Part shown: positions 25,357-59,558 of the stretch, piece after piece | How the letters are laid out: every line of letters begins with the position of its first letter | Numbering within the stretch: the first letter of the stretch is position 1 | Source: Bacteroidales bacterium | GTDB lineage: Bacteria > Bacteroidota > Bacteroidia > Bacteroidales > VadinHA17 | Direction: 5' to 3' | Length of the DNA stretch: 64,000 bases | Assembly (NCBI GenBank): GCA_034679225.1 | Contig: JAXDBC010000038.1 | Coordinates: 10,595 to 74,594 of the forward strand | Made by a program: the position numbers and the translations under genes | The notes under the pieces: generated by a model | Seen by the model: the letters and a program-made list of their open reading frames with translations, nothing else | Told to the model about the DNA's origin: nothing | The model's database searches: none

Positions 25357-25452
25357 GTCTTGCGGTCTGGCACGACCGCACGACTGCACGACCGCAGGAC
25401 CGCACGACCGCAAGACCGCAAGACCGCACGACCGAACGACAGGCGACCGCGG
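25357..25452. repeat. Octamer tandem array (NGACCGCA, about 9 units) preceded by one inverted unit
   Basis: cgaccgca cgactgca cgaccgca ggaccgca cgaccgca agaccgca agaccgca cgaccgaa, led by ggtcttgcggtc. Fills the gap between ppk2 and hisS. Confidence 0.9.
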
Positions 25453-25511
25453 GGAGCAAGACTATACGACTTTCCCTTTTTATTCCTACTTTTGTCCTTT
25501 ATCTTATTAAA

Positions 25512-26879
25512 ATGAAGCCTTCAATACCAAAAGGAACCCGCGATTTCTCACCGGAAGAGATAATGAAACGGGAAAGTATCTTTGAGACAATCAAAAAGGT
25601 TTTCAGGTACTATGGCTACCAGGCTATTGAGACGCCTGCAATGGAAAACCTGTCGACCCTGCTTGGAAAATATGGGGAAGAGGGTGACAAACTGCTGTTC
25701 AGGATTCTCAATTCAGGAAATTTCCTTTCAGGTGTAAGCGATGAGGAACTTCTTGACAGAGACCTGAATAAGATATCCTCAACTATCTGTGAACGGGGGC
25801 TCAGGTACGACCTCACGGTGCCCTTCGCACGTTATGTCGTTCAGCATCGCGATGAAATAGTCTTTCCGTTCAAGAGGTACCAGATACAACCGGTGTGGAG
25901 AGCCGACCGGCCCCAGAAAGGACGATACCGTGAATTCACCCAGTGCGATGCTGATGTAATTGGAAGTGATTCCCTGTTGAATGAGTATGAACTGATAAGA
26001 ATTATCGATGATATTTTCAGAGATCTCGGGATAAACATCGTGGTAAAGATCAACAACAGGAAGATACTTTCAGGCATTGCAGAGATAATCGGCGAATCGG
26101 GAAGGATCACCGATATAACGGTTGCTATCGATAAACTGGATAAGATCGGGACAGATGCGGTAAATGAAGAACTGAAGGCTAAAGGCGTATCATCTGATGC
26201 CATTTACAGGCTGCAGCCCATCCTGAAGCTTAAGGGAAGCGCTGAGAAAAAGCTGTCGGAACTTGAAGCGACGCTTTCAGAATCAGAGACAGGACTGAAA
26301 GGAATTGAGGAAATGAGGAAGCTCTTTTCGTATATCGGAAGTACATCACTGACAGCAGCGACAGAACTTGATCTGACACTTGCAAGGGGACTGAACTATT
26401 ACACCGGGGCCATCATTGAGGTCAAGTCGCGTGATGTCAGTATCGGCAGCATATGCGGCGGAGGGCGTTATGATAACCTTACGGGAGTTTTCGGTATGGA
26501 GGGAGTCTCCGGCGTGGGAGTCTCCTTCGGGGCCGACAGGATATATGATGTAATGACCCAGCTGAACCTTTTCAGCGCCAGGGATGTGGTGCAGACAAAA
26601 GTGATGATAGTCAATTTCGGCGAGAAAGAAACCGGATTTGCCCTGAAGCTAAGAAGCACGCTGATTGAGAACGTGATAAGCACCGAATTCTATCCAGATA
26701 CCGTCAAACTGAAAAAGCAGATGTCCTATGCCGGTTCGAGGAAGATACCCTATATCGTTCTCGCGGGTGAAGATGAAATCAGTAAAAACCTGGTTACCCT
26801 CAGGATAATGGCAACAGGAGAGCAGAAGAAGATGGATGTTGCTGAACTTTTAACTTTTCTGAAAAACGCTGCACACTAA
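25512..26879 (+). CDS. hisS: Histidine--tRNA ligase
   Basis: 455 aa, class II motifs ([23 protein letters not shown]). Confidence 0.96.
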
Positions 26880-26951
26880 ACACTTAACCCTGAATCACTT
26901 ACTCTCGTTGACCCCCTTTTCCTCCCGTCCCGTCCCGATTCCCCTGCATTC

Positions 26952-27091
26952 ACATACCCCCTTTCCCGTTTCCCCCAGGGGGGAAAGGCTTCTTCCAATG
27001 GAAGTTGCTGCTCAATTTGTTATATCAAGCATTGAAGTTCATATTTCTTTCCAATATTAGCAGAATCTTCTTGCTCCTTCACCCTAGGGGG
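26952..27091 (-). repeat. MITE-like 142-bp element, inverted copy (about 85% identity to the 46.4-kb copies)
   Basis: The reverse complement aligns end to end with 46364-46505, including both CCCCCAGGGG-type termini. Confidence 0.7.
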
Positions 27092-27128
27092 TTGGGGGTA
27101 AAGCCCCCTTGGGGGTTGGGGGTAAAGC
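27087..27128 (+). repeat. Tandem duplication of a GGGGGTTGGGGGTAAAGC module (four G5 tracts)
   Basis: gggggttgggggtaaagcccccttgggggttgggggtaaagc read directly. Confidence 0.85.
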
Positions 27129-27159
27129 TCCTTGCTGCTCAATTTATTATATAAAGCGA

Positions 27160-27217
27160 GCCGCGTGCCGCGTGCCGCCCGCCGCCCGCCGTTCTTTCGC
27201 CCTGTGCCCTACCCCCT
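27160..27217. repeat. Heptamer-periodic tract (GCCGCGT x2, GCCGCCC x2, then GTGCCCT-type units)
   Basis: Period-7 reading directly abutting and overlapping the stop codon of the thiamine pyrophosphokinase gene. Confidence 0.8.
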
Positions 27218-27856
27218 GAATTTCTGATAAACTATAACCGCTCCTTCGTCGAAGCGGATCTCGAATGAATCGCCTGTTGCTTCATTCAGGGTTCCCCGCC
27301 ACCAGTTCATGAGTTTAAGGCCTGAAAGTTCATATCTCAGACCTGAAGAACTGATTTCAGTTTCGGGGTTTACCGAGAACAGTGAAACCTGCTGACCAAC
27401 AAAGGAGTTTAGTGACCTGCTTCCCAGTATCGGGGTGAATATTCCGGTATCGGTTACCATCACGACGCTGACTTCCCTGGCATATTCAGCGAGGAGTGAT
27501 ATGTTGCCGATGGTATGGTCTTCCCTTTTTCCCGTGGCTCCGACAATCACAATATCCATATAACTATTATTAATACACCACCTGACTGCCTTTGTGAGGT
27601 CGTTGGTCTCCTGGTCGGGGTCTCTGAAGAGCCGGCCGGAATATTCCCGGGCAATTTCGCGGTCGATGGAATCAAGGTCGCCCACTATCGCTTCAGCTTC
27701 CAGTCCGGAACCGGCAAGGTTCTTAATACTGCCGTCGCAGCAGATTATATGTTCAGCTTTCCGGAGGTATGCAAGAGGCACCGGATGCATGGGAAAGTTC
27801 CCGTCAGCGAGTATTACAGTTCGCTGGATATCGAAAATGATGTTTTGATACATCAT
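27209..27856 (-). CDS. Thiamine pyrophosphokinase
   Basis: 215 aa, CCDGS and IVGDLDSI motifs, C-terminal thiamine-binding domain. Confidence 0.85.
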   Translation of the reverse strand: MMYQNIIFDIQRTVILADGNFPMHPVPLAYLRKAEHIICCDGSIKNLAGSGLEAEAIVGDLDSIDREIAREYSGRLFRDPDQETNDLTKAVRWCINNSYMDIVIVGATGKREDHTIGNISLLAEYAREVSVVMVTDTGIFTPILGSRSLNSFVGQQVSLFSVNPETEISSSGLRYELSGLKLMNWWRGTLNEATGDSFEIRFDEGAVIVYQKFRG

Positions 27857-28181
27857 TGCAGACAGTTAATTAATATTAAAAGCTGAAATTTAGTTATTCT
27901 GCATGGGAAAACAAGCGTCTGTAATGCATACAGCCCTATATAATTCAGCAAAACAAACTGAGTATCACATGACAAAAAAAAAAAATTGATTTGTAGTAAT
28001 CTATCGAAGATTCAACTATATTTGGACACCCTATAAACCTAACCCATGTTGCCTATGGTACAAACATTCATTTGCTATTTAATTTCAGTGGGAGTTTAAG
28101 ACTCCATTTTTTATCCACCAAGTAAATTTTACTTGGAACATTTTTTATTTAATTATCTAATCTAACTAACTTCTCAAAAGT

Positions 28182-31100
28182 ATGACGAAAAAAATCATGC
28201 GAATTGTTTCATTCCGTACAAGTTCAAGGCTTGTCATGAAACTTTTGACAGTGTTGGTATTGCTTGGCTCTCTGCCTGCATTTACTGCAAGCGCTGATCC
28301 GGGTGATATGCAACAGAAGAGGATCACCGGCCGCGTTACCGACAATTCGGGAGCGCCGTTGCCAGGTGTGAACATTCTGGAAAAAGGCACCATCAATGGC
28401 TCTATTACCGATGCCGACGGAAATTATGCACTTACCGTTGCCGGATCGAGCTCGGTGCTGACATTTTCATTCATCGGTTATACCAGTCAGGATGTGACTG
28501 TTGGTTCGCTTAACGCGGTTGACGTAGTTCTTCAGGAATCCTTATCGGCCCTTGATGAGATCGTGGTTGTAGGTTATTCGACCCAGGCAAGGAAGTCCCT
28601 TACAGGATCCGTGTCGCAGGTTGGTGCAGCCGCCTTATCAGAGAGTGCCGCCACCAACCCGATCACCCGTCTTCAGGGTAAGATCGCGGGTGTGACCATT
28701 CTGAACCAGCACACGCCCGGCGAGGGCTCGACGATCAGGATCCGAGGTATGACGACCATCAACGACGCCAGTCCTCTTTACGTTGTTGACGGTGTTCCCG
28801 GAGGTTCCTATTCACCAAACGACGTTGAAACAATCACTATACTGAAGGACGCTGCCGCGCAGTCGATCTACGGTGCAAGGGCAGCCAACGGTGTTGTTCT
28901 TATCACCACCAAGGGCGGTAAGAAAAACCAGAAAGTCCAGATGAACGTTAATGTAAGGCAGGGATTCACTTCTCCCGGTAAGTTCTATGACCTGCTCAAC
29001 ACGCAGGAATGGGCTGAGATGCTTTGGCTTGAAGCCAAAAACGGCGGTGTTTCAGGCTACAAACACCAGCAGTTTGGTAATGGTTCGAGCCCGGTTATCC
29101 CGGATTTCATCTTCCCGACGGCTGCAATGGCGGGTGACCCGCGTGCCGACATGAAGTTGTACGACAACAAGATCGCTGAAGAAGACGGCAGCGACACTTA
29201 CCTCATTACCAGAACCAGCCCGGGGACCGATTTCTACGGAGCTGCCACCAGGAATGCAGCCTACAAGGAGTACACCCTCGATATTGCCGGCGGTACACAG
29301 AACGCTGCCTATGCATTCATGCTTGGTTATACCAATGAGGAAGGTATATTCAAGTACACCGGCTTCGACAATTACAGCTTCCGCGCCAATGTGTCCGCGT
29401 CTCCTGCAAAATGGATTGATGTTGGAGCCAACGTGGGGATTCAGTACAGCACCGACCGCGGTGCACAGGGCGACAACTCTGAATCATCCCTTATCTCGTG
29501 GTGCTACAGGATGCCGACCGCTGTACCGGTTTACGACGAATCAGGTACCACGTTTGCCGGATCAAGGCCTTCAGCCATGGGTAATTCCAGTAATGCCGTC
29601 TTCGTTGCCTGGTCAAACCAGTATGACAAAACCACTCAGATGGACGTTAGCGGAAACACCTTCGTTAAATTCAACATACTGAAGGGACTCTCCGCGAAAT
29701 CCCTTATCGGTATCAACCAATACGGACGAAACACTGATAATTTTGACTATTTTGAAGTGGCAGCCGCGGAAAGGGGAAAATATGACAGCTTTACCAAGGA
29801 AAACAGAGCCAATCTGAACTGGACCTGGACAAACACCATTGAGTATGGTCTCAGGACCGGCAGCCATGACATCAAGCTTATCGCAGGTACTGAAGCATAC
29901 GCTAACAAATACACCAGGCTTACTGCAGGAAGGCAGCAGTTCCCTGTCAAGGATCCCAACTACATGAATCTTAACACCGGTCTTCGTAGTATAAGCAATT
30001 CCGACGACAACAATGCTTACAGCCTTTTCTCGATATTCGGACGTGCCAACTACACTTATGCCGACAAATACATGGTTGAAGCAGTAGTAAGACGTGACGG
30101 CTCATCCCGTTTCGGTAATGAAAAATACGGTATCTTCCCTGCATTCTCTGTTGGATGGAGAATGACCGAGGAAGCATTCATGGCTTCAACCAAGCAGTGG
30201 CTCAACGAACTGAAGATCCGTACAGGATGGGGTGCAGTCGGGAACGACCGTATGGGTAACTACAACAGCTACACCCAGATCATATACAGTGAAGGAAACG
30301 CCAGCTATGGTATGACCGGTGATCATAACAATTTCAGCAACACGGGTTTCTACCAGTCGACATTCGGTAACACCGATGTGAAATGGGAAGCCACCACGAC
30401 CACCAACCTTGGTATCGATGCATCTTTCTTCAACCACTGGACATTGACATTCGACGTATGGCAGCGTAAAACCCACGACATGCTTTACCAAAAGCAGCTG
30501 CCATTGGTTCTTGGTACAGCTACCAGGCCTTCAATCAACATCGGTGAAATGAAGAACACCGGTTTCGATCTTGAACTGGGATACTCGAATACAGCTTTGA
30601 ACGGCGATTTCTATTACAGCGCCGACCTTGTTTTATCGCGCTACAAGAATGAGCTGACCAAACTTACCGATGTCTCCACCGACTTCTACCAGGGATCGGG
30701 ATTTCGTGAGAAGTATTACACCAGGACTCAGACAGGCCACGCTTTCCCTGAATTCTACGGTTATGTAGTGGAAGGCATCTTCCAGAGCAACGAGGAAGCA
30801 GCTGCATGGGCTCCTGCATTCGGAACCTATAACAAGGCCGGTCACTTCAAATACAAAGATGTCAGCGGCCCCAACGGAGTTCCTGATAATGTGATCAATT
30901 CTTACGACCGTACCTACATCGGAACACCTCACCCGGATTTCACCGCCGGTCTCAGCCTGAACCTTGGTTACAAGGGAATTTCCCTTATGACTACTCTCTA
31001 TGCTTCAGTGGGCAATGATCTGGTTAACTATGTAAGTCGTTTCATCGATTACACGCAGTTCGAGTCGGGAAAGAGCAAGAGAAGGCTTTATGAATCATGG

Positions 31101-31430
31101 GGAAGCCCGCATCTGAAGAACAACGCGGATGCCACCATGCCCATCATTTACTCTAACGACACTCCTCACCAGGAGCCCTCCACGGCATTTATTGAGGATG
31201 CATCATTCCTTCGTATGAAGACCTTAAGGGTCGGCTATGACCTCAACAGGATACTGAACAACAAGTTCAGCTCGCTTCAGATCTACTTCCAGGGTTCCAA
31301 CCTTTTCACCATCACCAAGTATTCGGGACTTGATCCTGAAATCTCAGGTGCAGGAATCAACATGGGTATAGACTCCGGCGCATGGCCAACAAGAAGGCAG
31401 TTTATCTTCGGGATCTCTTTTGGCCTGTAA
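28182..31430 (+). CDS. SusC/RagA-family TonB-dependent outer-membrane transporter
   Basis: 1082 aa, CarboxypepD_reg-like N-terminus (ITGRVTDNSGAPLPGVNI), plug (DEIVVVGY), C-terminal ...FGISFGL. Confidence 0.95.
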   Translation: MTKKIMRIVSFRTSSRLVMKLLTVLVLLGSLPAFTASADPGDMQQKRITGRVTDNSGAPLPGVNILEKGTINGSITDADGNYALTVAGSSSVLTFSFIGYTSQDVTVGSLNAVDVVLQESLSALDEIVVVGYSTQARKSLTGSVSQVGAAALSESAATNPITRLQGKIAGVTILNQHTPGEGSTIRIRGMTTINDASPLYVVDGVPGGSYSPNDVETITILKDAAAQSIYGARAANGVVLITTKGGKKNQKVQMNVNVRQGFTSPGKFYDLLNTQEWAEMLWLEAKNGGVSGYKHQQFGNGSSPVIPDFIFPTAAMAGDPRADMKLYDNKIAEEDGSDTYLITRTSPGTDFYGAATRNAAYKEYTLDIAGGTQNAAYAFMLGYTNEEGIFKYTGFDNYSFRANVSASPAKWIDVGANVGIQYSTDRGAQGDNSESSLISWCYRMPTAVPVYDESGTTFAGSRPSAMGNSSNAVFVAWSNQYDKTTQMDVSGNTFVKFNILKGLSAKSLIGINQYGRNTDNFDYFEVAAAERGKYDSFTKENRANLNWTWTNTIEYGLRTGSHDIKLIAGTEAYANKYTRLTAGRQQFPVKDPNYMNLNTGLRSISNSDDNNAYSLFSIFGRANYTYADKYMVEAVVRRDGSSRFGNEKYGIFPAFSVGWRMTEEAFMASTKQWLNELKIRTGWGAVGNDRMGNYNSYTQIIYSEGNASYGMTGDHNNFSNTGFYQSTFGNTDVKWEATTTTNLGIDASFFNHWTLTFDVWQRKTHDMLYQKQLPLVLGTATRPSINIGEMKNTGFDLELGYSNTALNGDFYYSADLVLSRYKNELTKLTDVSTDFYQGSGFREKYYTRTQTGHAFPEFYGYVVEGIFQSNEEAAAWAPAFGTYNKAGHFKYKDVSGPNGVPDNVINSYDRTYIGTPHPDFTAGLSLNLGYKGISLMTTLYASVGNDLVNYVSRFIDYTQFESGKSKRRLYESWGSPHLKNNADATMPIIYSNDTPHQEPSTAFIEDASFLRMKTLRVGYDLNRILNNKFSSLQIYFQGSNLFTITKYSGLDPEISGAGINMGIDSGAWPTRRQFIFGISFGL

Positions 31431-31464
31431 CAGATGTTTTTATGAATAGTAAACTTAAACGAAT

Positions 31465-33234
31465 ATGAAAAGAATAACCAAATTATTATCAATCGCGATA
31501 CTTTTCGGAAGCTTGCTGATGATATATTCCTGCAGTGATGAGTACCTCACCAAGGAACCCCCGGGAGTTGTATCAAAAATTATTCTCGAGACACCTGATG
31601 GCGTTGAAGCTCTTCTTGTTGGTGTATATGAAAGGATGCAGAACGGAAGTTCAATGTTCGGAGGCGCCATGACAAGTGACTGGACTTATTCAGCCGGATG
31701 TTCGGATGATTGCTACAAGGGAACATCGAGCGGCGACCAGGCCAACTTCAACCTTCTCGAGAGGTACGAGGCTCTTCCAAACAATCCCTATCTAAGTGAC
31801 AGATGGACACTCTGCTATGACGGAGTTGCCCGCGCCAACGTCGCCCTGCAGTTCCTGTGGCAGACACAGGCAGGTCCTTCACCGCTTACAGCCGAGAGGG
31901 CAAAACAGGTAGAAGCTGAAGCCAAATTTCTGAGGGCATGGTTCCATATGCAGGCCAACAAAATCTTTGAAAGGATCCCTTATGTAAAGACCCAGGAAGA
32001 ACTTGGAGACATTACTCCGGAGGAAGTTCCCAACACCGATGCCGGCTGGGATGGCATTGAAGCCGACCTTCAGTATGCTATCGACAACCTGCCTGTAACT
32101 AAATACAATAATGAAAAGGGTCGCGCAGACAAGTATGTTGCCATGGCTTTCAAAGCCCAGGCTCACATGTACCAGAAAGAGTATCCTGCAGCAAAACTCC
32201 TTCTTGATGAGATTATCTCCAGTGGTAAGTACTCTCTTGCTCCCGAGTTTTCATGGAACTTTGATATGATGCATGAGAACAATGTCGAGTCGATCTTCGA
32301 ACTTCAGTGTACGACTACTGCAACAGCTCATTCGGCTGTTCACGGTTCGGGTTGCAACTTTCACCAGAAGGGGCCGGCAAGCTGCGGCGGCTGGGGATTC
32401 TTTCAGCCTTCACAGAACCTTTTCGAGGCATTCCAGACAACAGCTGAAGGGCTTCCCGTTCTTGATCCCGCGCTTCGCGATCCTCTCGAACATGACATGG
32501 GTGTTAAAAGCGATGAGGATTTCACCCCGACCAACCATCCTCTTGATCCGCGTGTAGACCATCTTATTGCACGCCGCGGTGTCGACTTCCTTGGCTGGGG
32601 AATCCACCCCGGAAACGACTGGATCCGTGAACAGAACAACGGCGGACCTTACATGACAAAGCTTTTCATGCACGCCAAGTCAGAACAGTCGCTCAATGTC
32701 AATGGAAGCGGCTTCTACAACGGCAAAAACTACAGGACCATGCGTTATGCAAGCATTCTCCTGTGGAGAGCGGAATGTGCCATCGCCGAAAACGATCTCG
32801 ACTATGCAAGGGAACTGGTGAACATGATCCGGAACCGTGCCAAAAACAGCACACCGGTCATGGGTCTGTGCACAAGCACCAAGAACCTCGAGAAAAACCC
32901 TGTTGTCGACTGGACCAGGCCGGCAGCGAACTATGTCATTGAGCCCTACCCGGATATTTCCGGCCAGTATCCTTTCAACAATGCAGCAAACGCGCTGCTT
33001 GCAGTACAGCACGAAACAAGGCTTGAGTTTGCCACCCAGAACCACCGTTTCTTCGATCTGAGGCGCTGGGGCATCATTACAGAGACACTCAATGCATATA
33101 TCCAGGATGATATTGGATTCAGGACATTCCTCCAGGGCGCTGTCTTTGTAGCGGGAGAGGATGAATACTGGCCAATCCACCAGAGCGTTATCGACCTTCA
33201 GCAAGGTATAATCCAACAGGATCCCGACTATTAG
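31465..33234 (+). CDS. SusD/RagB-family nutrient-binding lipoprotein
   Basis: Lipobox LMIYSC, C-terminal RLEFATQNHRFFDLRRWG motif, directly downstream of SusC. Confidence 0.93.
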   Translation: MKRITKLLSIAILFGSLLMIYSCSDEYLTKEPPGVVSKIILETPDGVEALLVGVYERMQNGSSMFGGAMTSDWTYSAGCSDDCYKGTSSGDQANFNLLERYEALPNNPYLSDRWTLCYDGVARANVALQFLWQTQAGPSPLTAERAKQVEAEAKFLRAWFHMQANKIFERIPYVKTQEELGDITPEEVPNTDAGWDGIEADLQYAIDNLPVTKYNNEKGRADKYVAMAFKAQAHMYQKEYPAAKLLLDEIISSGKYSLAPEFSWNFDMMHENNVESIFELQCTTTATAHSAVHGSGCNFHQKGPASCGGWGFFQPSQNLFEAFQTTAEGLPVLDPALRDPLEHDMGVKSDEDFTPTNHPLDPRVDHLIARRGVDFLGWGIHPGNDWIREQNNGGPYMTKLFMHAKSEQSLNVNGSGFYNGKNYRTMRYASILLWRAECAIAENDLDYARELVNMIRNRAKNSTPVMGLCTSTKNLEKNPVVDWTRPAANYVIEPYPDISGQYPFNNAANALLAVQHETRLEFATQNHRFFDLRRWGIITETLNAYIQDDIGFRTFLQGAVFVAGEDEYWPIHQSVIDLQQGIIQQDPDY

Positions 33235-36220: not shown

Positions 36221-38014
36221 TTATCTGAAGTGGAAATAATACCAGAAAGTTTTGCCGAACTGTTCCCTCATAAGCGCTTCGAGCCGTGCCGGATTTTGCC
36301 TGGCGCTCATAAAAGCGGCAAAATACTGCTCAAACCTCAATCTCGTCTCACTGCTCAGTTCCAATCCCCCAAGATCGGGAAAAACACCCTGGCTGTTATA
36401 GTATATAAGTATTGCTTCCTCTATGTATTTGGGTATCCTGGTGTATCCCATGTTTTTCATAAGTCGGACGTTGTCGACCAGCATTTCCACATCCTTGTTG
36501 AGCAGAAGCCAGGCCATCATGTATTCGAAGGCTTCCCTGTTGCCGGGATTCTGGTTCACAAGCCTGGGTAAATTGCTTTCAGGCGTTTCCAGGAAGATAA
36601 AGAAGTCCTGACCGGGAAGCAGGTTCATTTTCCTTCCCAGGTTCGGATCCGATTTAACCGCGAGCGGGTCGCCCGCGAGTTTTTCATGATCCATTGCCCA
36701 TTTTCTGTAAAAAAGCGTTTTTTTCAGGATTGAAGCATATTTGGCGGTCATGCTGTAATTGCCGTTGATAAGGCTCGTTTTTACAAGCAGTTTCATGTTC
36801 TGGGGCCTCTTGCCATAAACCACCATCTCCTCGTAGGCCCAACGCTGAGCTTCATTAATCAGTCCGATGGCATAAAAGGCTTGTGCACCCCAGTTGATAT
36901 GCTCACTGCTCCATGGGAGGAACAATGATGAAGTCCTGAAGTCCTGCCTTCCCTGGAACAACCTGTCGCACATCTGTCCGGTCGACGAAAGGGCAATGTT
37001 GTAAAAATACTGTCCTATAAGATTTTCTGAGGGTTTCTTTTCATGGTATTCAACTGCCTCCTGGTATTTCCCGGTGAAAACAAGCTTCTCGAGGTTTATG
37101 ACGCGGGCAGTCTGCGGCTTGAAAGCTGCTGCAAGAGCTGCAACGGCAGTACAAAGAATAATTGCCGGCAGTACAATTGTCGCGGCAAACCGTTCCCGCG
37201 GTCTTACTATCCTTAATCTCCCGGCCAGGCGGGTAATTACCGGATACAGCACAAGGAAGGCTGTCATTAACCGGAACATCAGCCTGTGCAGGCTGTCGTT
37301 TATATCCGGAAGGGGATAAAGGAAACGCTGTTTTATGTCATCGGTAATCAGGAACTTGTCGGATAAGAGCACGCATAATCCTGCCAGGCCTGCAAGCATC
37401 AGCGGCATTAGATACCTGTGGCGTCCTTTCAGGTAAACAAGACTGTAAACAATGAACATCCCGGTGAATATCAGGCCAAAAGCGCCAGCAAGGTAATATA
37501 GGACAGGGAAAAAGGTCAGGGCGATGTACATATCCCCGGTCTTTTCACGGCTTACCACTATAAGGAAGAAGAAAAGAAGCAGTACAAATCCTGCATTGTA
37601 GAGCATCAGGTGATAATAATGAGTCTGCATGATGAGCAGCAGGCAGGATGGAATGATTGCCAGGCCCGATCCCGGCATCAGCCCGCGGTTTATCCCGTGC
37701 ATTATCACAGCCGGTAATGACAGTACCAGGGCCAGGATCAGGGCTCCCGCGAAACTATTAATATAAAATTGGGTAAGGAATTTTGCTATCAGGTCGGCAG
37801 GGGCACCCGGTTTATCAAAAAACTCAAGGATATAGTCAGCTGAATACAGGAACAGCGACTGTTGTTCCTGGAAGAAGAGGACATAATTGCCGGGGATCAG
37901 GAAATAGATAAAGGCAATAAGGAAGAAAGCGGCAAAGAAATACCAGCTCCGGTCAGGGGCCGGTACAGGCACCTGCTTTTTGGGGGTTGTTTTCTTATTA
38001 CGGTTCTTTGTCAT
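36221..38014 (-). CDS. Polytopic membrane protein with soluble C-terminal domain, function unknown
   Basis: Start set to the ATG at 38014 (MTKNRNKK...). About 9-10 hydrophobic helices, then a helical-looking (alpha-rich by eye) C-terminal half. The 101 codons upstream in the track ORF are tandem-repeat read-through. Confidence 0.75.
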   Translation of the reverse strand: MTKNRNKKTTPKKQVPVPAPDRSWYFFAAFFLIAFIYFLIPGNYVLFFQEQQSLFLYSADYILEFFDKPGAPADLIAKFLTQFYINSFAGALILALVLSLPAVIMHGINRGLMPGSGLAIIPSCLLLIMQTHYYHLMLYNAGFVLLLFFFLIVVSREKTGDMYIALTFFPVLYYLAGAFGLIFTGMFIVYSLVYLKGRHRYLMPLMLAGLAGLCVLLSDKFLITDDIKQRFLYPLPDINDSLHRLMFRLMTAFLVLYPVITRLAGRLRIVRPRERFAATIVLPAIILCTAVAALAAAFKPQTARVINLEKLVFTGKYQEAVEYHEKKPSENLIGQYFYNIALSSTGQMCDRLFQGRQDFRTSSLFLPWSSEHINWGAQAFYAIGLINEAQRWAYEEMVVYGKRPQNMKLLVKTSLINGNYSMTAKYASILKKTLFYRKWAMDHEKLAGDPLAVKSDPNLGRKMNLLPGQDFFIFLETPESNLPRLVNQNPGNREAFEYMMAWLLLNKDVEMLVDNVRLMKNMGYTRIPKYIEEAILIYYNSQGVFPDLGGLELSSETRLRFEQYFAAFMSARQNPARLEALMREQFGKTFWYYFHFR

Positions 38015-38015
38015 G

Positions 38016-38135
38016 GTCTTGCAGTCTTGCGGTCTTGCGGTCTTGCAGTCTTGCGGTCTTGCGGTCTTGCAGTCTTGCGGTCTTGCAGTCTTGCGGTCTT
38101 GCAGTCTTGCGGTCTCTTCGTCCCGCAGTCTCTTA
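38016..38135. repeat. Octamer tandem array GTCTTGCR (12 perfect + 3 degenerate units)
   Basis: Begins 2 nt from the ATG at 38012-38014. Reverse-complement family of the array at 25373. Confidence 0.95.
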
Positions 38136-38145
38136 GTTTCACTCT

Positions 38146-38290
38146 GTGCCCTGCGCCCTGTGCCCTGTGCCCTGAGTCCTGTGCCCTGCGCCCTGTGCCC
38201 TGTGCCCTGAGTCCTGTGCTCTGTGCCCTGCGCCCTGTGCCCTGTGCCCTGAGTCCTGTGCTCTGAGCCCTGTGCCCTGAGCCCTGAGCC
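38146..38290. repeat. Heptamer tandem array G[TAC]G[CT]CCT (20 units) with 35/42-nt higher-order periodicity
   Basis: gtgccct gcgccct gtgccct gtgccct gagtcct repeated. The minus (sense) strand reads (AGGGCAC)n, which is G3N4G3N4. Confidence 0.95.
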
Positions 38291-38328
38291 ATAACCTACC
38301 CCTCCCAGGGGATCCATCCGGTACAGCC

Positions 38329-42543: not shown

Positions 42544-42656
42544 AATAAGATTTTTATTTTTAATGGAATGATTCCTTCCCCGCTCAGGCGGAGGAACTCA
42601 CATGACTGAAAATCATACAAATGTAGGTTTGTATATTTGACACATGTGGGTTTCAT
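42540..42656 (-). repeat. ATG-headed repeat module, copy 3 (38-codon frame MKPTCVKYTNLHLYDFQSCEFLRLSGEGIIPLKIKILL)
   Basis: Lies in the susC-susD intercistronic gap. Its TGA overlaps the susD ATG as ATGA. Confidence 0.6.
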
Positions 42657-42690
42657 ATCGTTCCAGTGTTAATGTAACAATTATTAATCA

Positions 42691-46218: not shown

Positions 46219-46312
46219 GTGCGGTCTTGCAGTCCTGCTTGCCCTGAGCCCTGAGCCCTGAGCCCTGAGCCCTGTGCCCTGTGCCCTGTGCCCTGAGCCC
46301 TGAGCCTTCCTG
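46219..46312. repeat. Mixed array: 2-3 octamer units (GTCTTGCA-like) then about 10 heptamers (GAGCCCT/GTGCCCT)
   Basis: gtgcggtcttgcagtcctgcttgccctgagccctgagccctgagccctgagccctgtgccctgtgccctgtgccctgagccctgagcc. Confidence 0.9.
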
Positions 46313-46363: not shown

Positions 46364-46505
46364 TTCCCCCAGGGGTGAAGGAGCAAGAAGATTCTGCTAA
46401 TATTGGAAAGGAATATAAATTGTAATATTTGATATAACAGATTAAGCAGTAACTTTCATAGGAAGAAGCTTTTCCCCCCTGGGGGAAACGGGAAAGGGGG
46501 TGAGT
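46364..46505 (+). repeat. MITE-like 142-bp element, copy 1
   Basis: Termini TTTCCCCCAGGGGTGAAGG ... CTTTTCCCCCCTGGGGGAAA are inverted repeats. Differs at one position from copy 2. Confidence 0.75.
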
Positions 46506-46616
46506 GACTGCAGGGAGGTAACAAAAAAGAGGGTACGTGAATAAGGGGGTTCTGAGGTCTTTTTGTAATTATTTAATCACCTGTAGTTCCCTGCCGGTTA
46601 TACCCCCTTCCCAACC

Positions 46617-46758
46617 TTCCCCCAGGGGTGAAGGAGCAAGAAGATTCTGCTAATATTGGAAAGGAATACAAATTGTAATATTTGATATAACAGATTAAGC
46701 AGTAACTTTCATAGGAAGAAGCTTTTCCCCCCTGGGGGAAACGGGAAAGGGGGTGAGT
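46617..46758 (+). repeat. MITE-like 142-bp element, copy 2
   Basis: Direct repeat of 46364-46505 at a 253-bp offset. Confidence 0.75.
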
Positions 46759-46883
46759 AAATGCGGGGAGCTCCCGATAGCTATCGGGACGGGATGGAAA
46801 GGGGGTATGTGACTGCAGGGGATAACAGTAAATAGGGTAAATGAATGCAGTGTGAAACAAGAATGCGGGTGAGTGAAAGTAAG

Positions 46884-46988
46884 AGGTTCGAGGTTTAGCG
46901 TTCAGCGCAGAAAGTTGACCTTGCGCCTTGTGACTTGAACCTTGCGGTATTTGCTAATTGTAAATTGCTAATTGCAAATTGCAATTGA
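46884..46988. repeat. Drifting heptad mosaic (15 units; the 7-nt phase is kept while the unit sequence changes)
   Basis: aggttcg aggttta gcgttca gcgcaga aagttga ccttgcg ccttgtg acttgaa ccttgcg gtatttg ctaattg taaattg ctaattg caaattg caattga. Confidence 0.8.
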
Positions 46989-48002: not shown

Positions 48003-48658
48003 TTATGCAGAAATGGATCTCTTCCATACTTTAAGTCCGGCGAACGACATTACAAGGTACACCGCGTAGAGAATAACCGTGGGATAAAGCCCCCGCGTAA
48101 CGAAGATCATCACGGACGCGGCATTTACAGCGATCCAGAGGTACCAGTGTTCATATATCTTTCTTGCAAGCATCCAGGTTGCTATTGCCGACAGTGCTGT
48201 TATGAAGGAATCCCATCCCGGCACAGGTGAATCGGTAAACCTCGACAGGATAAACCAGATACCGGAATACGACAAAATGAACACAGCAGTGAGCACTAAA
48301 CCTGTTAACAATTTTAACCTCGTTACCTGAAGTCCCCCGGACTCCGCGCCCTGTGCCCTGTGCCCTGTGCCCCGTGCCCTGAGCCCTGTGCCCCGTGCCC
48401 CGTGCCCTGTGCCCCGCGCCCTGTGCCCTTCACCCACCAATACCATCCTATGCAGCTCATAGCCAGGTAGTATCCCTGAAGGCTCATATCAGCATAGAAC
48501 TTGCTTGTAAAAAAAACAACAATATAAACGGCGCTGGTTACTATGCCAACCGGCCACAACCATATATTCTGTCTTATCTCGAGAAACACGTAGATTATGC
48601 CGCTTAAGGCTCCGAATATCTCTATCCAGTTTGTTGCTATCCAGACGTTAATGCTCAT
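48003..48658 (-). pseudogene. PnuC-family (PnuT-like, thiamine-regulon) transporter split into two frames by a heptamer array
   Basis: 48323-48658 encodes the N-terminal TMs (...CIGWYWWVKG). 48003-48446 encodes the C-terminal TMs in a different frame. Both frames are open across the 84-nt array. Confidence 0.8.
48346..48429. repeat. Heptamer tandem array (12 units, GTGCCCT/GTGCCCC/GAGCCCT/GCGCCCT) inside the pnuT-like gene
   Basis: Read directly. The sense strand is (AGGGCAC)-type G3N4 repeats. Confidence 0.95.
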
Positions 48659-48662
48659 ATCA

Positions 48663-51086
48663 TCAGAATTCCAGTCCCAGCCTCAGCATAAAATTGGTTC
48701 CTGCCTGGGGAAAATAATATGCCCAGCTAAGTTCCTTTCCGTCTTCAAACCAGTTGCCTCCATATGCATTGCTCACATATCTTGCATTGAAGACATTGTT
48801 TACAAGAAGTTGAATACCGGCGCTCCTGAGGTTTTTAATCACCGGTTCGAAATCGATCATAATGTCGCTGACCATGTATGGATCCAGCATCCTTTCACTG
48901 TTCATGGTGTTGTCGAAATACTGCTTCCCGACATATTTTGTAATGAAATGCAGTTTCAGGGAAGGGAGGATATTTGCATACAGATTGCTGCTTCCTGTAA
49001 TTGAAGGCGAGTAGGCTATATCAACCTTACCGAGATGAAGGCTCTTGTATTCCTCCGACCAGTCGGATGTATTATAATCAATATAATGCTCTACAAAATC
49101 AACTATCTTGTTGCTGCTCAGTGTCAGGTTCAAATCGAGACCGATGAAATCTGCCGGTTTGAAGCCTGCTGTCAGTTCGGCTCCTATCCGGTAGCTTTTT
49201 TCGACATTTGTCATTATTGAATAGCCCACATTGCTTAGTTCGCCCGTCGGCACCAACTGGTCGCGATACAGCATTCCGTACAGGTTGAGCCCTGCCGAGC
49301 TCTTTGCCGCTCTTACAACATAGCCGGCCTCAATGTCGTAAAGCCGCTCAGGTTTTGGTGTTGCCTCACTGTCGCCCGAAGCCTCCTTGAAATCGGTTCG
49401 TGTCGGTTCCCTGTTAGCCACCGACAACGAAAGGAAAGCCTCCTGTCCTGGAAAGAGCCTGAGGAAGAGTCCTGCCTTAGGATTGAAAAAATGGAATTCA
49501 TGAGTCTGCCCGATATCCTTTAGATCGTCGTCTTCGCCCCTGAGCGAGTAGTTGACATGCCTGTACTGAAGGTCGCCAAAAGCCGACAGTTTATCTGTTA
49601 ATGAATAGTTTATCTTCCCGTAAAGGCTTGCTTCCTTTTTTTCACCATTGTTGAAATACCATTGATAATTGTTCTCCGCTGATCCGGGGTATCTCGTCCA
49701 GATAATCCTTCCATAATGGTCGCCTGAATAGAGATTAATTCCGCCTCCGATCTTTGAGTCAATTTTATCTTTACGGTAATTCAGCGACCAGACAAGTCCG
49801 TGAAAACCGTTTGACATCCATTTTCTCCGGATCAGGTCGGTTTCATCCATTGTAAGGCTTCCGATGGTCACTTCCGGAAGGCCGTATTTGCTGTACTTTT
49901 CATCCTCCCTGAACTCTTCGTAATAGCCTTTGCCGTAAGTATAGTGAAGGGCGGAATTTAAGGAAACAAAATCATTTATTTTCCTGCCGAATATCAGGTG
50001 ATAGTGATTCTGGGTGTAGTTATCGCTTTCGTTGTCATAATAATGCACCTTTCCCAGGTCATCGGAGTATTCTCCGGCCGGATTATAACGTCTGTCGATG
50101 TTAAGCATCTCTTTCGGCACTCCCCACCATCCTATCCCTGTTTTTTCCTTTCCAAGTATAACATTAGCTTTTATAAGCGATTTTCCAGTCCGGAACAGAG
50201 CGCTGAACAAGGCCGAATTATGTTCCGATCCTGTTCTGGCAATATATCCATTGCTTCTAAGATCGGACCAGCGCATCTGGAATGCAAACCTCTCTTTCAG
50301 CAATCCTGTTCCGGCTGTAATGCTGTTTCTGAAAGTTCCGTAGGAGCCGGCAGCCGAACTGATCCCTGCAAATGGTTCGTTTTCAATACCTTTAGTTTGG
50401 ATGTTTATTGAAGCCCCGAAGGCACCGGCCCCGTTAGATGAAGTTCCCACTCCTCTCTGTACCTGAATATTGTCGACAGAGGAAGCCAGGTCGGGCAGGT
50501 CGACCCAGAAGACCTGTTGCGATTCGGGATCATTTAGGGGAATTCCGTCAATGGTGACATTTATCCTTGAAGCATCGGTTCCCCTTATCCTCAGACTGGT
50601 ATATCCGATTCCGTTTCCAGATTCCGATGTCCCGACAAATGAAGGTGTAAGATTCAAAAGAAAAGGTATTCCCTGGCCGGAATTATTTTTTTCCAGTTTT
50701 TCTCCCGTCACATTTGAATAAGCGAGCGGAGTTTGTTCCCCGGCCCTTGTCGCGCTTATTATGACATCGTTGGTTACAATGGTTTTCAGTCGCAGACTCA
50801 CATCCTCTTTCATATCTCCTGTCACATGTATCTCCCTGATCTGTGTTTCATATCCCATGAAGGAATATCTCAGGGTGTAATACCCGGATTTAAGTCGTGC
50901 GAGCATGTAGTTCCCGGAGGCATCGGTATGGACACCGGTAAAAGTTCCCTCAATAATCACGGCGGCACCCGCGAGTGCTTCGCCAGCAGAGTCGGTAACT
51001 TTGCCGCTGAGGCTCTGGCCTGTCATATGAAAGGAAAAGGAACCCAGCAGAATAAGTGACGACAGAAAAAGCAGTTTTTTCCTCAT
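48663..51086 (-). CDS. TonB-dependent receptor (thiamine-regulon outer-membrane transporter type)
   Basis: 807 aa, CarboxypepD_reg N-terminus, plug, C-terminal ...LRLGLEF. Preceded by a TPP riboswitch and followed 4 nt later by the pnuT-like gene. Confidence 0.9.
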   Translation of the reverse strand: MRKKLLFLSSLILLGSFSFHMTGQSLSGKVTDSAGEALAGAAVIIEGTFTGVHTDASGNYMLARLKSGYYTLRYSFMGYETQIREIHVTGDMKEDVSLRLKTIVTNDVIISATRAGEQTPLAYSNVTGEKLEKNNSGQGIPFLLNLTPSFVGTSESGNGIGYTSLRIRGTDASRINVTIDGIPLNDPESQQVFWVDLPDLASSVDNIQVQRGVGTSSNGAGAFGASINIQTKGIENEPFAGISSAAGSYGTFRNSITAGTGLLKERFAFQMRWSDLRSNGYIARTGSEHNSALFSALFRTGKSLIKANVILGKEKTGIGWWGVPKEMLNIDRRYNPAGEYSDDLGKVHYYDNESDNYTQNHYHLIFGRKINDFVSLNSALHYTYGKGYYEEFREDEKYSKYGLPEVTIGSLTMDETDLIRRKWMSNGFHGLVWSLNYRKDKIDSKIGGGINLYSGDHYGRIIWTRYPGSAENNYQWYFNNGEKKEASLYGKINYSLTDKLSAFGDLQYRHVNYSLRGEDDDLKDIGQTHEFHFFNPKAGLFLRLFPGQEAFLSLSVANREPTRTDFKEASGDSEATPKPERLYDIEAGYVVRAAKSSAGLNLYGMLYRDQLVPTGELSNVGYSIMTNVEKSYRIGAELTAGFKPADFIGLDLNLTLSSNKIVDFVEHYIDYNTSDWSEEYKSLHLGKVDIAYSPSITGSSNLYANILPSLKLHFITKYVGKQYFDNTMNSERMLDPYMVSDIMIDFEPVIKNLRSAGIQLLVNNVFNARYVSNAYGGNWFEDGKELSWAYYFPQAGTNFMLRLGLEF

Positions 51087-51109
51087 CTCTGTATCAGTTA
51101 AAACTATAT

Positions 51110-51205
51110 ACCGGGTGCATTTGTTCCCTACGCCGGCATTACCCGGATCAGGTGCAAGGGTATGATCTCAGCCCGTAATAATAAGGCACCCCGTAAATGA
51201 CGATG
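51110..51205 (-). promoter_or_regulatory. TPP (THI-box) riboswitch
   Basis: The minus strand reads CAUUUACGGGGUGCC...GGGCUGAGAUCAUACCCUUGCACCUGAUCCGGGUAAUGCCGGCGUAGGGAACAAAUG. It shows the canonical CUGAGA, ACCUGAUC.GG.UAAUGCC.GCGUAGGGAA core and a CAUUU/AAAUG P1, about 25 nt before the ATG at 51086. Confidence 0.9.
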
Positions 51206-52260: not shown

Positions 52261-52321
52261 GTGCCGGAAGCAAACAAAAAGACTGAAGGGTTTCCAGACG
52301 AATAAACCAACTATCTGTTTT

Positions 52322-52735: not shown

Positions 52736-52767
52736 TATCCCGGGCCGGCTTCCGCGAAATGAAGGGA

Positions 52768-55364: not shown

Positions 55365-55502
55365 AACAGTCTGAATTATATTTTCACTGCAAATAATCGC
55401 GGCTAAAATAGCATATTTAAGCTTTGAACAGGTATTCCAGATCACGGATTTGCCGAAATGTCTCCGGGGCTGGCATTCTCAGAAAAACAACAAGCCGCGA
55501 AA

Positions 55503-57461: not shown

Positions 57462-57551
57462 GGATTAAGTAATCAGTATTTGGTTCACGCGAATAAAGCC
57501 GGCAAATTTAATAATTCTTATTTTTACCTATTCTTTATTCAGGATTATTTT

Positions 57552-58685
57552 ATGTTGAGAAAATTTTTGCTCATTATCTGCCTGGCACCGGCTGCATTAA
57601 TGCTTGCCGCCCAGGAGGACAGTGTTAACATCAGCCATCTCTCCCTCCTTTTCATTGGTGACATTATGGGGCATGATGAGCAGATTGCTTCGGCATTTAA
57701 TCCCGGGACCGGCAATTATGAATATGATGATGTTTTCAGCTATGTAAGGGATGAGATATCCGAATCCGATATAGCTATTGCCAATCTGGAAGTCACCTTA
57801 GGCGGAACTCCCTACAAGGGTTATCCGGCTTTCAGTTCTCCGGCTTCTCTTGCAGCGGCCTGCAGTAACGCGGGGATTGATGTTCTGGTTACAGCCAACA
57901 ATCACTCGGTCGACAGGGGCAGGAAAGGGATCCTCAGCACCATTCAGCGGCTCGACAGCCTGGGCATAATGCATACAGGCACATTTGCCGACAGTGCCGC
58001 GAGGGACAGCCTCAGTCCGTTAATTATTAAAAAGAACGGCATCTCTGTCGCAATTCTGAACTATACATATGGAACCAACGGGCTTAAAGTGCCGGCACCT
58101 ACAATAGTAAACATGCTCGATACTTCAGTTATAAGCTCCGATATTAAAAAGGCCCTTGCCCTCAATGCCGATGTTATAATCCCCTTCGTACACTGGGGTA
58201 TAGAATATGATACACTGCCGTCGGCCGAACAGAAAAGGCTGGCACGCTTTTTTTTCAGCAAGGGAGCCGATCTGATTATCGGTTCTCATCCCCATGTACT
58301 TCAGCAGATGGAATGGACCCCGGCTGATTCGAGCCGTGGCGACAGTCTTGTTGTATATTCACTTGGCAATTTTGTCTCGAACCAGCGAACCATAAGAAGG
58401 GACGGAGGGGCGATGGTGAGGATTGAACTTGAAAAACCGGATAGCCTCACCAGGGTTTCACGTGCAGGTTACTATCTCACCTGGGTTTACACTCCTGTTG
58501 AGAACGGCAGGAAAAAGTTTTATGTACTCCCTTGTTCGGTATACGAAAACAGGCCGGAACACTTTCCCCGACCAACGGATTATCAGAAAATGAAGCTTTT
58601 CATACGTAATTCCCGGAGACTGCTCAACACATTGAATACGGGGATCGGGGAGATTATTTGCACGGAAGAAGGCTGGGTATATTGA
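57552..58685 (+). CDS. CapA-family (PGA_cap) metallophosphatase-like protein
   Basis: Signal peptide from the ATG at 57552, GDIMGHD, ANNHSVD, GSHPHV motifs. Confidence 0.8.
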   Translation: MLRKFLLIICLAPAALMLAAQEDSVNISHLSLLFIGDIMGHDEQIASAFNPGTGNYEYDDVFSYVRDEISESDIAIANLEVTLGGTPYKGYPAFSSPASLAAACSNAGIDVLVTANNHSVDRGRKGILSTIQRLDSLGIMHTGTFADSAARDSLSPLIIKKNGISVAILNYTYGTNGLKVPAPTIVNMLDTSVISSDIKKALALNADVIIPFVHWGIEYDTLPSAEQKRLARFFFSKGADLIIGSHPHVLQQMEWTPADSSRGDSLVVYSLGNFVSNQRTIRRDGGAMVRIELEKPDSLTRVSRAGYYLTWVYTPVENGRKKFYVLPCSVYENRPEHFPRPTDYQKMKLFIRNSRRLLNTLNTGIGEIICTEEGWVY

Positions 58686-58744
58686 ATTAATTCCTATCAT
58701 TGTAGCTTTAAGCGAAAATAAGCGGGCTGTAATATATTTGATTT

Positions 58745-59455
58745 ATGGAAAACTCCATCGCTTTACTGTCGGCAACAGCAATAACGCTGGGTTTCGTTCA
58801 CACAATACTCGGGCCCGATCATTACCTTCCTTTCATAGTGCTGAGCGAGGCGCGAAAATGGAGTCTCAGGAAAACGATGCTGATCACATTCCTGTGCGGG
58901 CTGGGGCATGTTTTTAGTTCGGTTGTGCTGGGATTAGCCGGGATAGCCATCGGCATCTCGGTCAATCGTCTCGTATCGCTAGAGTCGTTCAGGGGTGATA
59001 TCGCGGCCTGGCTTTTCATTGCATTCGGGCTTGTATACACGGTTATCAGTATCAGGAACCTGTACCGCCGTAAAAAGCATTCCCATCCTCACTTTCATGC
59101 AGACGGTGTAAGCCATGTTCATGAACACGACCATTTTTCCGATCACAGTCATGTTCATGAGTCGTCTGCTGCCAGGACCACACCATGGATCCTTTTCCTG
59201 ATTTTCGCATTCGGTCCCTGCGAACCTCTGATCCCGGTTCTTATGTACCCGGCAGCCAGTAACAATATACCGGGCGCTGTGCTTGTTGCTCTTCTTTTCT
59301 CGATAGTCACCATCGCCACCATGATGGCTGTTGTGCTTGCCTTCAAGCTGGGCTTCAGCAAAATAAATCTTAAGCCTGTTGAAAAGTACAGCAACGTGAT
59401 TGCCGGAGCCATGATATTGTTATCGGGGTTAGGTATAAAGTTTCTGGGGCTCTAG
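58745..59455 (+). CDS. Metal-transporter-like membrane protein with His-rich loop (NicO/RcnA-like)
   Basis: Six hydrophobic helices, GPDH motif in TM1, loop HSHPHFHADGVSHVHEHDHFSDHSHVH. Confidence 0.55.
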   Translation: MENSIALLSATAITLGFVHTILGPDHYLPFIVLSEARKWSLRKTMLITFLCGLGHVFSSVVLGLAGIAIGISVNRLVSLESFRGDIAAWLFIAFGLVYTVISIRNLYRRKKHSHPHFHADGVSHVHEHDHFSDHSHVHESSAARTTPWILFLIFAFGPCEPLIPVLMYPAASNNIPGAVLVALLFSIVTIATMMAVVLAFKLGFSKINLKPVEKYSNVIAGAMILLSGLGIKFLGL

Positions 59456-59460
59456 CCTAT

Positions 59461-59558
59461 GAACACTAAACGCTTCGAACCTTGAACTTGAACAGCTAGC
59501 CGCTAGCCGCACGCCGCGTGCCGTTCAACTTTTAACTTAACCCCGAACCCCGAATCTA
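59461..59558. repeat. Drifting heptad mosaic (14 units)
   Basis: gaacact aaacgct tcgaacc ttgaact tgaacag ctagccg ctagccg cacgccg cgtgccg ttcaact tttaact taacccc gaacccc gaatcta. Confidence 0.8.

Follow-up and report, generated by a model that had tools for sequence, protein, structure and literature searches.

Tandem heptanucleotides of heterocystous cyanobacteria, the short tandemly repeated repetitive (STRR) sequences, were reportedly described by Mazel et al. in 1990. The arrays considered here lie in a 64-kb stretch of DNA from a member of the Bacteroidales (contig JAXDBC010000038.1, positions 10,595 to 74,594; this whole stretch is called the window), in which seven loci carry head-to-tail heptamers or octamers. 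Like the STRR sequences, they comprise several heptamer families, are tandem and, in the window and in about 110 kb of close relatives, occupy many mostly intergenic loci where families stand side by side, vary in length between strains, and have no known function; the STRR host, a heterocystous cyanobacterium, belongs to a different phylum, and here octamer and nonamer families are mixed in and one array is translated in frame. The initial annotation had called the arrays reminiscent of STRR sequences, which is apt for the kind of system, dispersed, multi-family and mostly intergenic; the STRR units themselves (CCCCAGT, TTGGTCA, CAACAGT) have no tandem copy in the window.

Comparable repeats are known from other surveys. 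According to the account given in PMC4679880, heptamers were the most abundant class of long simple sequence repeats with 5–11-nt units (LSSR5-11; Mrazek, Guo and Shah 2007), and polymerase slippage was proposed for them. The window arrays agree with that class in being iterations of 5–11-nt units beyond chance with whole-unit length polymorphism, and, by the same account, in the dominance of heptamers, the free-living hosts, the mainly intergenic location and slippage as the proposed origin; that survey, as related there, did not single out the Bacteroidales, and what is added here is the dispersal of multi-module blocks and a coding array that changes in 21-nt steps. Rehm et al. (2015; PMC4692102), where Calothrix heptanucleotides are cited as well, described GGGNATC and GGGGAYT heptamers of Xanthomonas and Nostoc which are placed near stop codons, GGGNATC forming a G-quadruplex (G4) in vitro. 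With these, the GGGCNCA arrays of the window share a tract of three to four G and a 3–4-nt loop within a 7-nt unit, one variable loop position, the fit to the G4 motif, rarity between divergent genes and, in a small sample with crude ORF calls, stop-proximal placement; they differ in the unit, in length (up to 21–30 units versus a preference for 4), in being known from sequence alone, and in their occurrence in many phyla. MacGregor (2015; PMC4679880) reported TAACTGA repeats in Beggiatoaceae and cyanobacteria as well as in five Bacteroidetes; for Paludibacter, Gramella, Aequorivita and Flexibacter they were reported along with “other heptamer direct repeats”. These repeats resemble ours in occupying Bacteroidetes spacers, in mixing heptamers, in 7-nt steps between strains and in lying within open reading frames (ORFs) only in a stop-free orientation; however, TAACTGA carries stops whereas the G-rich strand of GGGCNCA has none, and the present arrays are not concentrated just upstream of starts. 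The initial annotation knew of no equivalent description for Bacteroidota, but heptamer direct repeats have been described there. Tandem copies of TAACTGA, GGGNATC or GGGGAYT are absent from the window. Finally, phase variation driven by simple sequence repeats is well established in other bacteria (PMC3315296, PMC2651432), and the contingency loci responsible resemble one array of the window in having, within a gene, a repeat whose unit is not a multiple of 3, whole-unit alleles and truncation when out of frame; here, though, the units are impure, the array lies in a mid-gene loop, the gene encodes a housekeeping-type transporter of an environmental host, and the alleles are known as differences between assemblies. 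The system is therefore of a known kind, STRR-like long simple sequence repeats with 5–11-nt units, and no new category; what it adds is the dispersal of blocks, the occurrence of 7-mers alongside 8- and 9-mers, and a heptamer array that is translated and has frameshifted alleles in nature.

The reading we consider probable is that long simple sequence repeats with 7-, 8- and 9-nt units fill much of the longer spacers in one uncultured clade of digester Bacteroidales. Copy numbers would change through slipped-strand mispairing or unequal recombination; multi-module blocks would move between spacers by ectopic recombination or another mobilization route, and would then expand locally. Most intergenic arrays would be tolerated spacer DNA with no dedicated function, and within genes only the G-rich orientation, stop-free in every frame, would survive; the array inside a PnuC-family transporter gene would be a slippage-prone on/off hotspot at which selection holds most alleles in frame. 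Any function of the arrays beyond slippage is unproven.

Tandem Repeats Finder (TRF) and direct reading located arrays at each of the seven places where they had been noticed (Table 1). Five arrays are strong (25370–25440, 38015–38115, 38144–38290, 46241–46306 and 48346–48429), the one at 27.16 kb is short, the one at 59.5 kb marginal, and the one at 46884–46988 is built of other units. When the 64 kb were scanned for periods of 4–12 nt, only 7 and 8 were found (period 7 at 27.16, 38.14, 46.24, 46.95, 48.35 and 59.5 kb, and period 8 besides), while the same scan of first-order Markov random windows gives an expectation of 0.01 arrays per window; a chance origin is excluded. Array lengths run from 28 to 156 nt, and 5 of the 15 spacers of at least 100 nt hold arrays. 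The initial annotation had seen the same two unit families recurring, which is right for four to five loci but not elsewhere, as the window has at least five families overall. It had also placed the C-rich strand of GTGCCCT arrays on the plus strand at all loci having that unit; this is so within the window (21 plus-strand and 2 minus-strand copies of GTGCCCT), but it is not a fixed property of one DNA strand. All four GTGCCCT sites lie in or beside minus-strand genes, and in the relative L001 (L numbers denote sequences of relatives) an array is G-rich on the plus strand after a plus-strand HisS gene; orientation in relatives is not tied to one strand. The bias in the window follows gene orientation, and there is no replication-strand rule. 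As candidates, CRISPR, iterons and telomere-like synthesis were dropped, since spacers, replication genes and, among the ORFs scanned against Pfam, a reverse transcriptase are all missing; CRISPR repeats of about 24–48 nt alternate with unique spacers, and the units here are 7–9 nt long and contiguous.

The nearest relatives of HisS, of the DUF6057 protein and of the KdsA-like protein encoded in the window are found in metagenome-assembled genomes (MAGs) of uncultured Bacteroidales, sampled, where the type is named, from anaerobic digesters and activated sludge. HisS of the window has no exact match in the assembly index. Contigs L217–L226 encode a KdsA-like protein 100% identical to that of the window, and the species has therefore been sampled repeatedly; among such contigs, 7- and 14-nt indels occur upstream of the gene, where a 14-mer (module E) ranges from about 2 to 5.5 copies, and L217–L220 have a different array set at the 46.2-kb site. 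Throughout, array length differs between strains in whole-unit steps of 7, 8 or 14 nt. At orthologous sites in relatives whose flanking proteins are 75–98% identical the arrays are present with altered units and copy numbers. The spacer between PPK2 and HisS holds about nine octamers in the window, about four in L001–L006, and twelve copies of a 9-mer (GCAAGACCT) in L007, an 86% relative; the 3′ end of the thiamine pyrophosphokinase (TPK) gene has one GGGCACA unit in the window versus (GGCACAG)x8 over the TPK stop in L215; and the spacer between the PD40-repeat gene and the DUF6057 gene has 12 octamers in the window, about two in 98% relatives (L209–L214), a far more complex structure in a 93% relative (L215), and, in a 75% relative (L216), no array within the 114 nt of the orthologous spacer. 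The unit families thus recur in related genomes at orthologous and at other loci, and the window copies, which might have been the only ones, are not. At loci that were not chosen for repeats, array density is 0.38 per kb in close relatives (about 110 kb scanned) and 0.056 in relatives at 68–79%, the window having 0.17; period 7 is dominant and CAGGGCN the commonest unit in all three. Slippage is clearly the main source of array variation.

Table 1. Repeat arrays of the window and the transporter gene that contains one of them (positions within the window; strand as assigned)
Feature	Position	Strand	Context or basis
Octamer array GCACGACC/GCAAGACC, about 9 units	25356–25462	+	Between PPK2 stop (25352) and HisS promoter region
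Short GCCGCNN heptamers, then J1 (27188–27208), then one GGGCACA unit	27156–27217	-	
Octamer module C, (GCAAGACY)x12.6 on sense strand (RGTCTTGC on +)	38015–38115	-	TRF
Module B/junction separating modules A and C: GAGACNAA-type octamers, degenerate	38111–38143	-	
Heptamer module A, (GGGCNCA)x21 on sense strand (CTGNGCC on +)	38144–38290	-	TRF
Two octamer units (46219–46240), then heptamer array A (46241–46306, x9.4)	46219–46312	-	
Degenerate CCTTGNG units, then AATTGCN 7/14-mers (module E)	46884–46988	+	
PnuC/NMN_transporter-family gene, two overlapping ORFs (48323–48658, 48003–48446)	48003–48658	-	Pfam
Heptamer array A, 12 units, within the PnuC/PnuT-type transporter gene	48346–48429	-	TRF
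Mini-arrays CTTGAAC x2, GCTAGCC/GCCGCNN, AACCCCG x2	59461–59558	+	About 2.3 copies each

Besides slipping in place, blocks apparently spread between loci, because junction motifs and module order recur at unlinked places. J1 (GCCGTTCTTYCGCCCTGYGCC), 21 nt long and non-periodic, recurs at the 3′ end of the TPK gene in the window and L215 and within the SusC–KdsA spacer of L129 and L217–L219, with a chance expectation, estimated arithmetically, of about 3e-4 in the sequence examined. M1 (GCGACC-N4-GGGAGCMAG, 18 nt) stands in three unlinked spacers, namely between PPK2 and HisS, downstream of HisS (L001), and between SusC and KdsA (L129–L131, L217–L218). A composite of about 158 nt, made up of GCAAGACC units, ATG-TAA/TGA, a 16-nt repeat in two copies, AATTGNN heptamers and GAGACGAA octamers, is duplicated in tandem in L215 and present as an inverted copy downstream of HisS in L001–L005. 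In the PD40–DUF6057 spacer the module order is (GGGCACA)n, (GAGACNAA)n, (GCAAGACC)n (A, B, C); L134, L135 and L216 have the first two within the PnuC loop as well, module B there encoding GGLRDEETE, and the module B motif is further found in L209, in L215 and downstream of HisS in L001. The boundary ...GCAAGACCAT is seen in the PPK2–HisS spacer as well as in the PD40–DUF6057 spacer, where the window has it once and L215 three times. The proposal that a composite spreads rather than slipping independently at each site gains support from these recurrences in its first half; its second half is not, as slippage is not excluded and is the main source of variation. In L215 (5876–6190), each copy of the composite starts with GCAAGACC-ATG and an immediately adjacent TAA or TGA, so that start and stop codon form a pair, and the last copy runs into the true DUF6057 start, GCAAGACC-ATG-ACA.

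It is possible, if on the unlikely side, that the arrays are the cargo or debris of a non-autonomous mobile element resembling a miniature inverted-repeat transposable element (MITE), which would insert in spacers, with array growth being secondary. The junction motifs, the composite common to unlinked loci with its tandem duplication, and the boundary recurring at two spacers are what such an element would leave, and these spacers also contain another element, 150 nt long and bounded by terminal inverted repeats, whose mobility is clear. For the array composites themselves, however, no terminal inverted repeats, target-site duplications or fixed ends could be defined, as a MITE should have; module content varies by locus, no transposase is encoded among the window ORFs scanned against Pfam, and ectopic recombination between arrays accounts for the same data.

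The GGGCWCA heptamer is not private to the genome of the window but recurs across bacteria. Exact copies of (GWGCCCT)4 are present in at least 119 stretches of unrelated genomes (one genome per species), whereas about 3e-4 would be expected by chance (arithmetic estimate); among the matches listed are many Acidobacteriota, about two dozen MAGs of Bacteroidales/Bacteroidia, Lysobacterales/Xanthomonadales, Streptomyces and other actinomycetes, alphaproteobacteria, Phormidium and a Synergistaceae MAG. The Bacteroidales loci among them also hold other 7–9-mer arrays. Such a distribution fits the general bacterial tendency to heptamer repeats, as the 2007 survey by Mrazek is rendered in PMC4679880. 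The G-rich strand of the unit lacks T and hence any stop, whichever the frame; on the C-rich strand, the GAGCCCT variant has a TGA. Among co-directional gene pairs of Bacteroidales, 13 arrays are G-rich on the sense strand and 3 on the antisense strand, but the PnuC locus makes up 6 of the 13, which leaves 8 versus 3 when it is counted once; in other phyla the figures are 16 sense and 22 antisense. A rule that the G-rich strand is always sense was therefore given up, being only suggestive in Bacteroidales and absent in other phyla. Three antisense arrays of Bacteroidales lie 27–136 nt before start codons, as far as crude ORF calls allow; for repeats of the Rehm type the placement is at most 50 nt past a stop (sense) or ahead of a start (antisense).

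These G-rich arrays might be functional G4 elements, or i-motifs on the opposite strand, that, placed just past stop codons on the sense strand, would work at the level of transcript or DNA to shape 3′ ends, mRNA stability or read-through into the following gene, which we regard as unlikely. Each (GGGCNCA) run of at least four units fits a G3N4 motif, with a G-tract of at least 3 and a short loop, and the arrays have 9–21 units; 10 canonical motifs are present in the window versus 1.1 expected, 8 of them within the three A arrays. ViennaRNA with quadruplex terms predicts G4s in two of the three, variation between units is concentrated at one loop position with the G tract almost invariant, GGG-containing units are over-represented, and the stop-proximal sense placement resembles that of the GGGNATC repeats of Xanthomonas and Nostoc (PMC4692102). 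Against this, the predicted folds are only modestly better in energy with G4 terms, the Xanthomonas study established no function (PMC4692102), the orientation bias is weak once the PnuC locus is counted singly, and the array is dispensable at least in L216, whose orthologous spacer lacks it. Quadruplex function ranks as a minority hypothesis because the octamer, AT-rich AATTGCN and GCCGCNN families, which cannot form G4s, show the same dynamics.

The one array within a gene interrupts a member of the PnuC family downstream of a TonB-dependent receptor gene (48663–51086) and a thiamine pyrophosphate (TPP) riboswitch (51107–51203, minus strand; Rfam); because of this setting the product is probably a PnuT-type thiamine transporter. 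The array is G-rich on the sense strand because that strand lacks stops in every frame, and in relatives it is translated as a (G-x-G-H-R/G-A-Q)n loop following a GWYWW motif. In the window, the N- and C-terminal halves lie in different frames with the frameshift inside the array; the frame is restored by adding one unit or removing two, not by removing one. Both halves are present at 17 loci of relatives, 16 of which are in frame through the array with an intact ORF. In the 13 relatives from the metagenome scan with both halves, the anchor-to-anchor loop is a multiple of 3 and the ORF intact; the eight more distant relatives are in frame in 8 of 8 cases, and so is the 75% relative L216. Within the close clade, same-species contigs included, the normalized loop lengths are 210, 168, 147, 105, 84 and 42 nt, all multiples of 21, that is, of three heptamers or seven codons, while the window (98 nt) and L221 (49 nt) have multiples of 7 only, one heptamer out of frame, and both of their genes are truncated. 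Six of the eight distinct lengths in the close clade are thus in frame; were the frame of no consequence, the binomial probability of this would be about 0.02. With 52 nt between anchors, the L221 array falls short of the k value that its contig name gives (119), and its frameshift is therefore probably real. Selection probably keeps the PnuC frame against slippage that yields single-unit errors. Next to the array, L217, L218 and L221, with a KdsA-like protein 100% identical to that of the window, have PnuC halves only 91–94% identical at the protein level, and L224 and L225 match the window halves exactly, which suggests a recombination boundary or raised divergence beside the array. The arrays also touch two thiamine-related genes 20 kb apart, this transporter gene and that of TPK.

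A contingency locus has a repeat inside or upstream of a gene such that gain or loss of units shifts the reading frame or the promoter spacing, as with the PnuC alleles of the window and L221, and it would switch reversibly at a high rate within a clonal population. The arrays could be true contingency loci, that is, selected reversible switches, on/off for the transporter and graded for adjacent promoters; this we hold to be quite unlikely. Two independent alleles one heptamer off among the eight close-clade lengths, the restoration of the window gene by a single added unit, and arrays that adjoin promoter regions or starts at 25.4, 38.0, 46.9 and 59.5 kb would suit such switching, which is established elsewhere (PMC3315296, PMC2651432). 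However, the units are impure where classical contingency tracts are near-perfect, the gene encodes an inner-membrane vitamin transporter and no surface antigen, and mostly in-frame alleles are what plain purifying selection against frequent slippage predicts. Moreover, the intergenic arrays are located upstream of the promoter elements instead of separating them, and unit changes would therefore leave promoter spacing unaffected, and the host is a free-living digester organism, the Mrazek survey, in the form in which it is cited, tying 5–11-nt repeats to non-pathogens without known phase variation.

Very doubtful, in our view, is the most far-reaching account, by which a single, actively dispersing intergenic element would be built from GGGCNCA, GAGACNAA, GCAAGACC, GCCGCNN and AATTGCN modules, its G-rich arrays would act as quadruplexes marking transcript ends, and its insertion into the PnuT loop would have given an environmental anaerobe a genuine heptamer-driven switch that turns thiamine uptake on and off. 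Were it true, GGGCWCA across Acidobacteriota, Bacteroidota, Xanthomonadales, Actinomycetota and cyanobacteria would mean a shared selected function or generating enzyme.

An origin of the arrays, or of their copy numbers, in faulty assembly or sequencing is hardly credible, as the same arrays stand at the same sites in many independent assemblies across projects and assemblers, several (as in L221) are shorter than the k of the contig name, and the PnuC frame is kept in relatives in a way unlike random mis-assembly, even though short-read contigs often end inside arrays and the frameshifted ORF of the window is on no other record. Contigs break in heptamer arrays or a few bases beyond them at the starts of L209–L214 and at the ends of L220 and L222–L226 (PnuC array); since short-read contigs stop there, the arrays are assembly breakpoints and likely under-represented in MAGs. 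As regards a possible confinement to contig edges or problem regions, many contigs do break there, and the same sites recur in many independent assemblies.

Several observations weigh against the slippage-and-dispersal reading that we prefer. All variation is between metagenome assemblies, with no slippage event directly observed, and mixed strains can give chimeric repeat counts; the out-of-frame PnuC ORF of the window has no exact match in any other assembly of the index, and this allele may be genuine or a product of misassembly. Among the window ORFs scanned against Pfam, none encodes a transposase, reverse transcriptase or recombinase. Sense arrays start 0–33 nt past the upstream stop at 8 independent Bacteroidales loci, which, in a small sample with crude ORF calls, hints at selection or targeting, and GGG units make up about 16 of 26 heptamer arrays of close relatives, far above what base composition predicts.

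At the level of the individual spacers, the core of the 25.4-kb octamer array (25370–25440, 8.9 copies by TRF) is bordered by GGTCTTGCGGTCTGG on the left and by M1 (GCGACCGCGGGGAGCAAG, 25443–25460) on the right. In L001 (9881–9951) the corresponding array lies between inverted copies of M1 and would be the loop of a stem of about 20 bp; in the window (25356–25425) the left flank GGTCTTGCGGTC instead pairs with array units (118 nt, predicted −42.6 kcal/mol), and the region may form a hairpin following PPK2. At its N-terminus (24438–24497), the PPK2 gene has an in-frame 18-nt repeat encoding (KKASAA)n, with about two to three copies in the window, five in L001, four in L003 and L006 and none in L007; the gene is called with 323 or 317 amino acids because this copy number differs. 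The GGGCACA unit at 27.2 kb (GTGCCCT on the plus strand) begins at the TAG stop of the TPK gene (27209–27856, minus strand). At 38 kb, the heptamers begin about 38 nt past the stop of the PD40-repeat gene (38329–39915) and have a higher-order period of 35/42 nt and three G4 motifs (38144–38290), and module C abuts the ATG (38014) of the DUF6057 gene. An ORF of 698 amino acids (36221–38317) crosses both because array units carry no stop codons, a mechanical extension; it was rejected as coding, the DUF6057 profile and a homologue of 597 amino acids (P0121) putting the start at 38014. The invasion of a coding region, as first suspected, therefore applies to the PnuC array but not to this ORF. 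The array at 46.2 kb lies in a divergent SusC/KdsA-like spacer of 1.1 kb and is G-rich on the SusC sense strand; that at 46.9 kb immediately precedes the promoter region of the KdsA-like gene (47064). The mini-arrays at 59.5 kb stand between a DsbD_2-family gene and a DUF4290 gene, and their module order matches a longer composite downstream of HisS in L006. With Rfam gathering thresholds the TPP riboswitch was the sole match in the whole window; a permissive Rfam scan of the 45.9–47.1-kb spacer gave chance-level matches only, and tRNA and tmRNA genes are absent from the window. Scans for sigma-70 promoters, which are unsuited to Bacteroidetes promoters, and for intrinsic terminators showed little or no enrichment and nothing linked to arrays.

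Other features of the region stand apart from the arrays. The dispersed element of about 150 nt, which looks like a MITE, is present at 26942–27091 (minus strand) and at 46366–46515 and 46619–46768 (plus strand), the three copies being 87–97% identical; it has G/C-tract terminal inverted repeats (CCCCCAGGGG...CCCCCCTGGGGG) that pair in the predicted fold (z = −1.9 and −2.6) and no Rfam match. Upstream of the KdsA-like gene it is present in L130, L131 and L223 and absent from L129 and L217–L220. Between this element and the 27.16-kb array, a 24-nt unit (CCCTWGGGGGTTGGGGGTAAAGCY) occurs twice (27082–27129) with four G5 tracts, and its predicted fold has −40.8 kcal/mol with G4 terms versus −22.5 without. 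Two paralogous SusC/SusD pairs in inverted orientation (28182–33234, plus; 40717–45972, minus) bracket the region of the largest arrays, with stretches of 71–75% identity in the inverted-repeat pairs I3, I12 and I14. The 787-nt spacer from the enolase-like region to a UbiD-family gene (17986–18772) has no array, Rfam match or long ORF.

The array system is lineage-wide and informative on repeat dynamics as well as on the pitfalls of MAG annotation, which is systematically affected in these Bacteroidales: arrays inflate ORF calls, as in the 698-amino-acid call over the 38-kb array and possibly in HisS homologues of 482–513 amino acids, and a frameshift within an array calls for a check at the level of reads before the gene is taken for a pseudogene. 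The abundance of heptamer repeats in some bacteria has awaited explanation since the STRR sequences (1990) and Mrazek’s survey (2007), and this clade, whose loci recur with differing repeat numbers in many public metagenomes, provides dense natural material for studying it. The passage of blocks from one locus to another can be followed by their junction motifs, and the coding array displays a selective filter in which 21-nt steps are kept and 7-nt steps truncate the transporter.

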